From assembly GCA_036388095.1 (NCBI GenBank), contig DASVSL010000009.1, positions 1 to 28,163 on the forward strand: 28,163 nucleotides of DNA, given 5' to 3'. Positions within the stretch are counted from its first letter, which is position 1; every line of letters starts with the position of its first letter. Both the position numbers and the translations under genes were made by a program. The notes below the pieces were generated by a model. That model was not told the origin of the DNA. It made no database searches and saw only the letters and a list, made by a program, of their open reading frames with translations. Of this stretch, positions 22,995-25,445 are shown piece after piece. The stretch is from Candidatus Saccharimonadales bacterium. GTDB lineage: Bacteria; Patescibacteriota; Saccharimonadia; Saccharimonadales; Saccharimonadaceae.

Positions 22995-25445
22995 ATGAGT
23001 AAAAATTTAGTCATCGTCGAGTCGCCAGCGAAGGCCAAAACCATCCAGAAGTATCTTGGTGGAGATTTTTTAGTGCGCTCGAGCATCGGTCATATTAGAA
23101 GTATCGTCAAGAAATCGAAAGACGGCACACCACCGATCGATGTCCAAAACGAGTTCAAGACGCAGTACGAAGTTGACCCCGACAAGAAGAAGATCATCAC
23201 CGAGCTGAAAAAAGAAGCCAAATCTGCCGATACCATCTGGCTCGCAACGGACGAAGACCGCGAAGGGGAGGCGATTGCCTGGCATTTATGTGAGGTATTA
23301 AAGCTCGATCCGACCACTACTAACCGAATCGTTTTCCATGAAATTACCAAACCGGCGATTGAAGCGGCCATCAAGAGCCCTCGTACCGTTGATATGCACC
23401 TCGTCCAGGCACAACAGGCCCGTCAGATTCTGGACCGTCTGGTCGGCTTCGAACTTAGCCCGGTCGTCTGGCAAAAAGTGCCTGGCGGCAAATCGGCTGG
23501 CCGCGTCCAGAGCCCGGCGGTTCGGTTACTCGTCGAACGGGAACGCGAAATCCGCGCCTTTGAGGGATCGTACCAGTTCAAGGTGACTGCGACGTTCACC
23601 CACCAGGGGGACATCGTCAAAGCTGAGTTACCGAAACGGTTCGACAGCGAAGACGACGCCAAAGTTTTCCTCGAGAGTCTGCACGGGGCTGATTTTTCTG
23701 TCAGCGACGTTACGACCAGCCCGAGCACCCGCAACCCAGGCCCTCCCTTTACCACCAGTTCACTCCAGCAAGAAGCCAACTCGCGACTTGGCTTTGGTAG
23801 CAAAGCGACCATGAGCAGCGCACAGCGGCTCTACCAAGACGGTAAGATCACTTACATGCGTACCGACTCGTTCAACCTGAGCGACCAGGCCATCGGGGCA
23901 GCTGCCACATATATAAAGAGTGCTTTTGGGGACAATTACTCCAACACGCGCAAGTTCAAGACCAAAAACGCCAGTGCACAAGAAGCCCACGAAGCGATCC
24001 GTCCAACTGATATGTCCCTTGAGGTCGCTTCGGGCGACAGTTACGACCAGAAATTATACGATTTGATCCGCCGCCGCACGCTGGCCAGCCAAATGGCCGC
24101 TGCGAAACTCGAAAAGACAACCGTTACGATTACCGTCTCAAGCCGCAAAGAATTGTTTGAGGCCAAGGGTGAGGTCGTACTATTTGACGGCTACATGAAG
24201 GTCTACGGTGGCGGTAAGAAAGAACCGGATATTTTACCTGCCATGAGCAGTGGGGACATATTAAAGCTCAACGAAGCCATTGCCCGGCAGACCTTCGCTC
24301 GACCACCAGCCCGCTATACCGAAGGTTCACTGGTCAAGAAACTCGAAGAGCTTGGCATTGGCCGCCCAAGTACCTACGCGACAATTATCGACACTATCCA
24401 GACCCGCGGCTACGTCGAGCGCGGTGAAGGCGAGGGGACTGAACGCGATGTGGTTGTACTTTCGTTTGCGTCAGCCGACCCTGGCAGCAACTCTTTTTCA
24501 GAAGACTCTGCCTTACTGGCAGAGCGAGGCAAGACAAGTCAGCCGTTGGCGCCGAGCGAGTCTTCTGAAAAAGACGTTGATGACGCGGGCGGATTACCTA
24601 GCAACAGCAGGTACGTACGGCGTGAGATCATCCAGGAAAAAACCGGTGCCGACCGTGGTAAATTAGTTCCAACCCCGAGTGGCGAGCTGATCGCCGACTT
24701 TTTGAGCGATCATTTTGAGCAGGTCGTCGACTACGGCTTTACGGCAGGTGTCGAAGGCTATTTTGACGAGATAGCAAACGGCAAACTCGGCCGAAATGTC
24801 ATGCTGGCTGATTTTTACGGCCCGTTCCATGAGCTGATCGAGCAATCTGGCGGCATTGACCGATCAACTGTCGGCACCAACCGCGAACTTGGTAACGACC
24901 CAAAGTCCGGTAAACCCATCATCGCCCGCTTCGGACGGTTTGGACCAATGCTACAGCTTGGTGCGACCGAAGACAAAGACAACAAGCCTCAGTTTGCCCC
25001 TCTGCCCGCCGGCACTCGCCTCGATACCATTACCCTCGAAGAAGCCCTGCGCGCCTTTACACTACCGCGTGTCGTCGGCCAGACGCCGGACGGTAAAGAT
25101 ATCAAGGCGAACATCGGTCGCTTCGGCCCGTATATTCAGATCGACAAGCTCTACGTGTCGATCAAGCCGGAAGACCCGCACACGATCACACTTGAAACAG
25201 CCCTTGAACTATTCAATGCCAAACTCAAAGCCGAAGCGGAAAAGAACATTACCGACTTCGGTGACGGTATCAAAGTCCTCAACGGACGCTTCGGCCCGTA
25301 CATCACCGACGGCAAGAAAAACGCCAAGATACCGAAAGATGTCGAACCAAAAGCCATTACTCACGATGAAGCGAAGAAGCTCCTCGACGAAGCACCCGCA
25401 GCTAAAAAACGTGGCTTCCCGAAGCGTACTCCTCGCAAGAAATAA
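22995..25445 (+). CDS. topA: DNA topoisomerase I (type IA) with C-terminal GRFGPY repeats
   Basis: IVESPAKAKTI, ATDEDREGEAI, SAGRVQS, catalytic ITYMRTD, AHEAIRPT, GIGRPSTYA; three Toprim_C-type repeats; basic tail. Confidence 0.97.
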   Translation: MSKNLVIVESPAKAKTIQKYLGGDFLVRSSIGHIRSIVKKSKDGTPPIDVQNEFKTQYEVDPDKKKIITELKKEAKSADTIWLATDEDREGEAIAWHLCEVLKLDPTTTNRIVFHEITKPAIEAAIKSPRTVDMHLVQAQQARQILDRLVGFELSPVVWQKVPGGKSAGRVQSPAVRLLVEREREIRAFEGSYQFKVTATFTHQGDIVKAELPKRFDSEDDAKVFLESLHGADFSVSDVTTSPSTRNPGPPFTTSSLQQEANSRLGFGSKATMSSAQRLYQDGKITYMRTDSFNLSDQAIGAAATYIKSAFGDNYSNTRKFKTKNASAQEAHEAIRPTDMSLEVASGDSYDQKLYDLIRRRTLASQMAAAKLEKTTVTITVSSRKELFEAKGEVVLFDGYMKVYGGGKKEPDILPAMSSGDILKLNEAIARQTFARPPARYTEGSLVKKLEELGIGRPSTYATIIDTIQTRGYVERGEGEGTERDVVVLSFASADPGSNSFSEDSALLAERGKTSQPLAPSESSEKDVDDAGGLPSNSRYVRREIIQEKTGADRGKLVPTPSGELIADFLSDHFEQVVDYGFTAGVEGYFDEIANGKLGRNVMLADFYGPFHELIEQSGGIDRSTVGTNRELGNDPKSGKPIIARFGRFGPMLQLGATEDKDNKPQFAPLPAGTRLDTITLEEALRAFTLPRVVGQTPDGKDIKANIGRFGPYIQIDKLYVSIKPEDPHTITLETALELFNAKLKAEAEKNITDFGDGIKVLNGRFGPYITDGKKNAKIPKDVEPKAITHDEAKKLLDEAPAAKKRGFPKRTPRKK
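24468..24586. mobile_element. Palindromic element inserted in frame within topA (RPE-like)
   Basis: Perfect 17-bp inverted repeat at 24492-24508 / 24558-24574, inner hairpin CTCTGCC/GGCAGAG, outer GCGTCA/TGACGC. Coincides with a ~45-aa low-complexity stretch in TopA. Confidence 0.6.

Follow-up and report, generated by a model that had tools for sequence, protein, structure and literature searches.

A palindromic repeat within topA of a Saccharibacteria genome that resembles the Rickettsia palindromic elements in behaviour

Background

The Rickettsia palindromic elements (RPE) insert in frame into unrelated genes (PMC10969869, PMC3733652); the families RPE-1 to RPE-10 were reported by Ogata et al. 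(2000, Science 290:347; 2002, Genome Res 12:808), as summarised in the same two sources. These hairpin-forming repeats of about 100-150 bp are present in many copies in small, host-dependent genomes, and about half of the copies lie in frame within unrelated housekeeping genes, at tolerated sites, where they encode a conserved hydrophilic peptide. No transposase is known for them, and several families coexist. The element described here, which is found in topA of a 0.81-Mb Candidatus Saccharibacteria MAG, shares these traits: it is 131 nt long, occurs in six copies (15 in the related genome G041), four of the six being in frame in housekeeping genes, has no known transposase, and belongs to a lineage in which further families coexist (B and C in genome G023). 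The RPE end in CGTC (PMC3733652), and four of the five well-conserved copies of the present genome start with CGTC, the fifth having GTAG, although this start is not conserved among the copies of other genomes. The host belongs to the Patescibacteria (Saccharibacteria) rather than to the Alphaproteobacteria, and the likeness is one of behaviour; a Y-shaped core with strong covariation and copy-specific stems are features documented here. By analogy, the element appears to work like an RPE and is not assigned to the RPE family. It is best read as a new case, in Saccharibacteria, of an RPE-like, non-autonomous family of coding palindromes; literature searches retrieved no description of such repeats for Saccharibacteria or CPR.

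Several other systems are comparable in part. The REP and the GTAG- and CGTC-tagged repeats (Di Nocera et al. 2013, PMC3733652) are palindromic, located mostly just downstream of genes, sometimes intragenic and translated, and fall into subfamilies with different stems, the CGTC class having no dedicated transposase. However, REPs are single stem-loops of 20-40 bp, whereas the 131-nt element contains a three-way junction, and, unlike in the REP/RAYT system, neither this genome nor G041, with its 15 copies, has a Y1_Tnp/RAYT gene. Bacterial MITEs inside genes (ERIC/IRU, Coxiella QMITEs, Anabaena MITEs; PMC10969869, PMC5896051) are likewise small non-autonomous repeats that form hairpins as RNA or DNA, can carry ORFs and yield in-frame fusions, but MITEs possess terminal inverted repeats (TIRs) matching a parent IS and target-site duplications, neither of which was found for the element. 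Inverted repeats within translated coding sequence are also represented by the mitochondrial coding palindromes of Nematomorpha (PMC6649704) and the palindromic amphipathic repeat coding sequence of Mollicutes (PMC2996958), which differ in genomes and anatomy.

Results and discussion

Anatomy of the element in topA

The window, that is, the whole stretch of 28,163 nt that was analysed, contains the following features, all on the plus strand:

22995..25445, +, topA ORF, the host gene, 816 aa, unbroken through the insert (matches to Toprim, Topoisom_bac and three Toprim_C_rpt)
24467..24597, +, palindromic repeat element of 131 nt, full span of covariance model R1 (model positions 1-131; 135.4 bits, E = 6e-32; blastn copies on contigs C12, C88, C80 and C37)
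24468..24491, +, left outer arm, with GCGTCA and CAAC (sequence different in each copy of the genome)
24471..24614, +, extra coding segment S493-Y540, 48 codons compared with 3 in relatives (relatives' alignment, AlphaFold)
24492..24508, +, left arm of the perfect 17-bp inner stem (inverted-repeat search, 17-mer count)
24507..24523, +, hairpin 1 of the Y-shaped core, stem of 5-6 bp and 5-nt loop (stem covaries among copies)
24524..24557, +, hairpin 2 of the Y-shaped core, variable loop between two near-invariant blocks (covariation)
24558..24574, +, right arm of the perfect 17-bp inner stem (inverted-repeat search, 17-mer count)
24576..24593, +, right outer arm, with GTTG, TGACGC and then a conserved CGGA end (fold and copy comparison)

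The nearest solved structures to the topA product are those of bacterial topoisomerase I. A sequence-only reading of this DNA had described a perfect 17-bp inverted repeat, an inner hairpin and outer pairings, all within an intact frame, and each part of this description is borne out. The two 17-nt arms are 100% complementary and 49 nt apart, and the 17-mer is present at just these two places (chance expectation 0.07; two matches in none of 100 shuffles). The inner hairpin and the outer pairings CAAC/GTTG (24488-24491 with 24576-24579) and GCGTCA/TGACGC (24468-24473 with 24581-24586) are visible both in the sequence and in the fold. The predicted DNA fold of the element has an energy of -35.3 kcal/mol, compared with -21.0 +/- 2.8 for shuffled sequences (z = -5.1), and none of 200 shuffles is as stable. 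The entire region lies within the single 816-aa ORF, and its translation reproduces exactly the insert peptide and flanks quoted in that reading.

When the protein is aligned with its counterparts in 35 relatives of the same order, the 48 residues S493-Y540 lie opposite only 3 residues, a net gain of 45 that agrees with the approximate figure proposed originally. In all 35 sampled relatives the segment is absent and the site is a 3-residue beta-turn, the sequence-only reading having given a short beta-turn for TopA homologs, and in solved TopA structures the whole hairpin that bears the insert comprises just 5-10 residues. In an AlphaFold model of moderate quality (mean pLDDT 69.6, pTM 0.37), residues 495-538 have pLDDT below 50 and lie between strands 483-492 and 541-549, so that the insert is predicted to extend a beta-hairpin tip as a disordered loop, in line with the suggested surface loop. 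The insert is hydrophilic and rich in Ser, Glu, Asp, Ala and Pro. As the intact frame suggests, the topA copy is probably transcribed with its gene and translated from the mRNA; it would add 45 residues at a lineage-specific beta-hairpin tip on the protein surface, where a disordered loop would be tolerated.

Copies in this genome and in related genomes

A covariance model search identifies six copies in the genome, five of them outside topA and on other contigs. Four copies, alike in orientation and phase, lie in frame within topA, gltX, tsaD and a tRNA U5-methyltransferase gene, which encode functionally unrelated proteins; the remaining two are intergenic. Dozens of further copies are present in related genomes. 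The element thus has second copies, and the segment is not conserved in the sampled TopA homologs; the further copies and the empty topA site of the relatives support the proposal of a comparable selfish coding repeat family in this lineage. The possibility that the topA insert arose from an isolated local duplication or from misassembly is practically negligible: it is refuted by the five copies on other contigs, by the related copies in other genomes, and by an identical 816-aa TopA encoded on 3 public contigs, which shows that the insert is not an assembly artefact of this MAG.

Within the same GTDB family, the covariance model detects the repeat in 20 of 151 genomes, representing 18 of 95 genera, and finds no match in the other 131. 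The same model yields no match in about 290 other Patescibacteria genomes (two samples of 151, at the order and the phylum level). In a scan of public genomes, all 19 covariance-model matches come from MAGs titled Saccharibacteria or ‘uncultured bacterium’; 8 matches to the core pattern in other phyla fail the covariance model, and the core pattern was not found in viral contigs. A search of five copy-bearing loci with the Rfam 15 covariance models gave no match at E <= 1. Genome G041 carries 15 near-alike copies. Two additional repeat families, B and C, are found in genome G023. It is quite probable that the element represents a small non-autonomous palindromic repeat family of one family-level Saccharibacteria lineage, mobile now or formerly.

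A conserved nucleic-acid fold

The element is a hairpin of about 130 nt topped by a conserved three-way junction that consists of two small hairpins and invariant joining bases. The stem of about 30 bp varies in sequence from copy to copy while its complementarity is kept: 93.4% of cells are paired, compared with 75% in shuffles and 32-48% when the partners are slid, and changes on both sides are seen in 17 of 21 pairs, with a covariation score of 0.554 against about 0.1 in controls. In helix 2 (hairpin 1), 99.4% of cells are paired and two-sided changes affect 5 of 6 pairs, one of which is CG in 11 copies, GC in 8 and UA in 6. Helix 3 (hairpin 2) is 98.5% paired, and two divergent copies keep its pairs via double changes; its near-invariant blocks (24523-24535 and 24546-24558) form GC/GC and GGC/GCC pairs around a tandem G-A/A-G. 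All copies fold better than shuffled sequences (median z -4.9).

At codon positions 1, 2 and 3 the core identity amounts to 0.91, 0.90 and 0.90, respectively, and copies of either orientation and those between genes show the same degree of core conservation. Conservation acts on the nucleotides, i.e. on the nucleic-acid fold, and not on the peptide. These data bear on the idea that the repeat is a functional peptide module (a docking segment or linker, ...FPAERGKT..QLAPSE...) that spread among proteins, the palindrome being incidental. The peptide is indeed recognisably conserved in sense-oriented genic copies, but synonymous and non-synonymous positions are equally conserved, the same core is conserved between genes and in antisense copies, whose peptide differs, the proteins hosting the inserts have unrelated functions, and the segment is predicted to be disordered, which makes such a module highly improbable.

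Placement of copies and repeatedly occupied sites

More than 20 genic copies were identified in relatives, including in-frame copies in der, ileS, an ABC-F gene, dus, fpg, a Mur ligase gene and methyltransferase genes. Both orientations relative to the host gene are represented, with two antisense in-frame copies found at first and two more afterwards. All genic copies preserve the host frame, and they run through 33-48 codons without a stop, using just two of the six phases. Many intergenic copies contain stops in all six frames; thus, openness is a filtered property of the genic copies. Most intergenic copies are located 0-12 nt from gene 3' ends, often between convergent genes. Copies survive in two kinds of places, namely just past gene 3' ends, or inside housekeeping genes if the inserted length is a multiple of three and the phase is stop-free.

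This genome is not alone in having a topA insert: many other Saccharibacteria TopA proteins are extended at the same hairpin tip, among them some with recognisable copies of the same family. In related lineages, the copies at this tip have decayed or shrunk, leaving remnants of 8-38 residues that are still in frame. Removal of the element before translation, from either RNA or DNA and in the manner of an intron or intervening sequence, would yield a TopA without the 45 residues; this is very unlikely. CPR bacteria are known for insertions in rRNA genes, and a processing signal could take the form of a stable hairpin whose junction bases are conserved, but excision would not demand the open frame and the restriction to two phases that are common to all genic copies, nor does it fit the in-frame remnants, and the five copy-bearing loci searched match no ribozyme or intron family.

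The 3'-end positions, together with the fold, are also what would be expected of a host-useful structured RNA or single-stranded DNA signal (an mRNA stabiliser, a terminator, or a processing or regulatory site), in which case the fold would be under host selection and the coding copies would be by-products. REPs and ERIC-type repeats act on mRNA from such a position (PMC3733652), and on the plus strand of the element G-U pairs mildly exceed A-C mismatches (60 vs 39). Covariation far above controls and the invariant junction bases are more than a decaying selfish repeat needs, so that the fold may have a host function. Nevertheless, this alternative appears unlikely, given the patchy distribution at low copy number (with 131 of the 151 same-family genomes devoid of matches), the lack of an Rfam match, the presence of copies in both orientations to the host gene, the decay or shrinkage of the topA-tip copies in related lineages, and the near-alike copies in G041, which resemble proliferation rather than a conserved regulon.

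The same gene sites have been filled repeatedly across genera, some occupants being inverted or belonging to other repeat families; such positions are found in topA, gltX, tsaD, a methyltransferase gene, der and an ABC-F gene. Either only those sites would tolerate inserts, or existing hairpins may attract new copies. Three more specific explanations were considered. A site-specific outer stem is not supported at topA, where this genome (G000), G101 and the P0116 lineage have three different stems. Flipping of the core within a fixed stem does not account for the ABC-F copy of G153, in which the asymmetric inner arms are inverted too, so that the whole element is reversed, in-situ inversion and re-insertion being alike possible. 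As to a single origin of the topA insert in this genome and G101, the TopA tree needs two changes, but the insert may still have arisen once.

Search for a mobiliser

The sequence-only reading had proposed to look for a TnpA-REP or IS200-like mobiliser. RAYT/IS200 (Y1_Tnp), TnpB and DDE_Tnp_1 genes are absent from this genome (no PF01797, PF07282 or PF01609), and its sole rve gene (contig C91) shows no similarity to the element. Genome G041, with its 15 copies, has none of Y1_Tnp, TnpB, DDE_Tnp_1 and rve. PF01797 is absent from this genome, G041, G011 and G022; among the genomes checked, only G023 has Y1_Tnp genes, and no copy of the three repeat families borders them. In the genomes examined, the presence of the element is not tracked by any transposase family. 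A search for target-site duplications was negative, direct repeats in the flanks scoring 5.65 compared with 5.39 in a cross-copy control; short direct repeats that by eye seemed to flank the topA and gltX copies were lost against this control. An autonomous parent, sought in G041 via the TIR-like ends of its subfamily, was not found: these ends occur almost only as the elements' own end pairs of about 108 nt. We only infer mobility, because there is neither a within-species presence/absence polymorphism nor a target-site duplication.

With regard to mechanism, the core fold may be recognised by an enzyme acting in trans, probably on single-stranded DNA or RNA, and the complementarity of the stem would be kept by that recognition and/or by arm-to-arm repair inside the palindrome. 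A bolder and rather improbable version is that the Y-shaped core is a self-propagating structured unit that spreads without a classical transposase, targets existing hairpins or a few permissive sites, and has its stem rebuilt or homogenised by fold-back synthesis or arm-to-arm conversion. This would explain why the same positions are refilled by different subfamilies, families and orientations and, if true, would be a mobility mechanism undescribed for bacterial repeats.

Implications

Saccharibacteria live as ultrasmall epibionts, and their genomes measure about 0.8 Mb. With the element read as an RPE-like palindrome family, RPE-like behaviour recurs in the reduced genomes of a very distant lineage, and the inserts sit in essential genes such as topA, aminoacyl-tRNA synthetase genes, tsaD and der. 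Such a family accounts for lineage-specific ‘insertions’ in CPR genomes, which inflate protein alignments and annotations and make them confusing, and the inserts are natural maps of permissive loops in essential enzymes. Some Saccharibacteria are now genetically manipulable (PMC10633639), so that the question of how such elements spread is open to experiment, and a strongly covarying core without a known mobiliser offers a tractable handle on it.

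An in-frame palindromic insert in TopA

The open reading frame carrying the repeat is identified as topA because its product contains Toprim, Topoisom_bac and three Toprim_C_rpt matches. The host genome (G000) is 0.81 Mb long (97 contigs, 54% G+C, 92% complete).

22995-25445, plus strand: topA, 816 aa
24467-24597, plus strand: 131-nt palindromic element (family A)
24492-24508 and 24558-24574: arms of the inverted repeat

The sequence-only reading of this region had reported a perfect 17-bp inverted repeat, found at these arms, and quoted a peptide with its flanks that matches the translation of topA exactly. 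For the 17-mer, 0.07 matches are expected by chance, and two matches occurred in 0 of 100 shuffles; the 146-nt topA region folds as DNA with -35.3 kcal/mol (z = -5.1).

That reading had also proposed a comparison with homologs, in which TopA of 35 relatives from the same order aligns to the query as two adjacent blocks (approximately 1-491 and 540-816), with a 3-residue turn at the position of 48 residues in the G000 protein. In solved structures (6pcm from M. smegmatis and 1ecl from E. coli), the counterpart of query residues 476-557 is just 5-10 residues long; therefore, the whole beta-hairpin is lineage-specific, with the element at its tip. In an AlphaFold2 model (40 homologs, mean pLDDT 69.6), strands 483-492 and 541-549 flank the insert, and residues 495-538 (pLDDT < 50) have no secondary structure. 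The phase in use yields an acidic peptide rich in Ser, Ala and Pro (GRAVY -0.75); two of the other five phases are stop-free (Arg-rich, with Cys or Trp) and three contain stops.

Copies of the element and their insertion sites

A blastn search of the whole genome, the second check proposed in that reading, identifies four further copies with 76-88% identity. A covariance model, R1, built from these five copies (131 positions, 46 pairs) recovers a sixth, divergent one. An Rfam search with the element loci yields no family match.

Copies of the element in G000
Copy 1, contig C9: in topA
Copy 2, contig C12: in gltX
Copy 3, contig C88: in tsaD
Copy 4, contig C37: in a tRNA (uracil-5) methyltransferase gene
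Copy 5, contig C80, 2947-3077 (locus L014, 1501-1631): in the 150-nt sucC-sucD spacer
Copy 6, contig C29, 4095-4234 (locus L017, 1501-1640), minus strand: intergenic, divergent, 72.8 bits

The four genic copies share one orientation and one reading phase, and their encoded peptides follow the pattern ..S(F/L)..D.A(F/L)PA(E/K)RGKT..QLAPSE..K(D)V... Across genomes, in-frame copies are found in gltX, tsaD, topA, der, ileS, dus, fpg and genes for ABC-F, a Mur ligase, a TlyA-like protein and other methyltransferases. The strict frame and the stop-codon filter on genic copies suggest that these are translated. The spacer copy in G134, a genome of another genus (L059/L121), fuses sucC and sucD into a 716-aa ORF (320-2467 of L121); in G000, the sucC stop codon lies 10 nt before the element (contig C80).

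Intergenic copies, many with stops in all six phases, mostly lie within 0-12 nt of gene 3' ends, often between convergent genes, and may serve as, or replace, terminators where convergent stop codons are near. Such stop codons lie 0-12 nt away or are overlapped in genomes G041, G077, G103 and G151 and loci L054, L062 and L072, and the last codons of some convergent genes are supplied by the copies.

Reoccupied sites and other repeat families

The gltX site is filled in four genomes and the ABC-F site in three, in one of which the entire element is reversed; the tsaD and der sites are each filled in two. The topA copies in G101 and in the lineage of homolog P0116 each have a different stem. In G023, a relative, the tsaD and methyltransferase sites (L086, L091) hold a different 128-nt repeat, family B, 91% identical between the two.

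Family B is in frame, occupies exactly the sites of the element in G000 and encodes ..RGGAAPTSS.REVGADRA.GP..SDLRANSGGIRNDGSG..; it also adjoins the L063 (dus) and L078 (ABC-F) copies of family A. Approximately 100 nt upstream of family B in L091 lies a third in-frame repeat, a palindrome of 100 nt (74.5% self-complementary), so that two inserts are stacked at one site (ORF of 526 aa). Neither family B nor the 100-nt palindrome is present in G000.

Many TopA homologs from public data carry inserts of 8-56 residues at the same tip. The G000 protein is one of nine that form a clade with support of 97/87, all with a tip insert, suggesting that the site may have been long occupied, with decay in some lineages. 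The topA copy of G000 is nevertheless intact and similar to those elsewhere in G000, which suggests either replacement or homogenization within the genome.

Tip inserts of 29-38 residues with the motif ..(L/V)TP(S/P)T(S/P)S(D/G)VT.. (P0029, P0039, P0045, P0052, P0053, P0062, P0091, P0102 and P0109; homolog alignment A6) are found in a separate clade. These might be truncated remnants of family A or another family, and their interleaving with insert-free proteins implies repeated gain or precise loss.

A conserved structural core

The structured core is unusually well supported. Twenty-six copies drawn from several genomes were aligned with MAFFT without reference to any structure. The alignment shows a variable loop between two nearly invariant blocks, a small hairpin whose 5-nt loop is conserved, and long stems that vary between copies; a three-way junction is predicted by RNAalifold. 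In this alignment, 93.4% of cells pair (75.3% in shuffles, 32-48% with the 3' partners slid), 17 of 21 pairs show changes on both sides (6-11 in controls), and the covariation score is 0.554 (about 0.1-0.19 in controls). For example, one small-hairpin pair occurs as CG (11), GC (8) and UA (6). Each copy folds better than its own shuffles (median z -4.9).

Core conservation in sense-oriented genic copies is equal across codon positions (0.91, 0.90 and 0.90 for positions 1, 2 and 3), and the core is also kept in intergenic and antisense copies; hence, the constraint acts at the level of the nucleic acid, not the peptide. On the plus strand of the element, G-U mismatches are slightly more frequent than A-C (60 vs 39), which hints weakly at strand-specific selection.

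In the C29 copy, one otherwise invariant core block is altered, yet both partners of the hairpin 2 pairs have changed so that pairing persists; the same holds for the G022 copy.

Distribution, spread and classification

R1 matches 4 of 41 relatives (G000 included) and 20 of 151 genomes of the same GTDB family (18 of 95 genera); samples of 151 genomes each from the order and the phylum yield no match outside this family. A pattern search covering a single genome for each species finds 27 loci: 19 match R1, every one in a MAG whose title reads Saccharibacteria or "uncultured bacterium", and none of the 8 from other phyla does. The core pattern has no match in viral contigs. In G041, 15 copies, mostly intergenic, have stems in common, which looks like a recent burst.

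Multiplicity, patchy distribution, this burst and the varied insertion sites indicate that the element is probably mobile. No target-site duplication is detectable at the copies, and a search for an autonomous parent element found none. The TnpA-REP/IS200-like mobilizer envisaged in the sequence-only reading did not materialize: Y1_Tnp and TnpB, as well as DDE_Tnp_1, are absent from G000, the single rve gene of which is unrelated to the element, and G041 has none of these four transposase families.

Among the relatives, coding repeats are most numerous in G023, which has Y1_Tnp (IS200/RAYT-like) ORFs at C45:3855-4124 and C66:3-200 (L116, L117), flanked by none of the three repeat families.

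The element is too long for a REP and lacks a RAYT, and the lack of target-site duplications and of a parent IS rules out a classical MITE. Its behavior matches descriptions of Rickettsia palindromic elements (RPE; PMC10969869, PMC3733652). RPEs end in CGTC (PMC3733652); the well-conserved G000 copies start with CGTC in 4 of 5 cases and GTAG in one, and this start is not conserved in other genomes. Full-text literature searches found no description in Saccharibacteria or CPR. The in-frame palindromic element in topA is confirmed and its interpretation as an RPE-like repeat family is supported: judged by behavior, not sequence, it is classed as a new family of this kind rather than as an RPE, and it extends the known kind of in-frame coding palindromic repeats to a new phylum.
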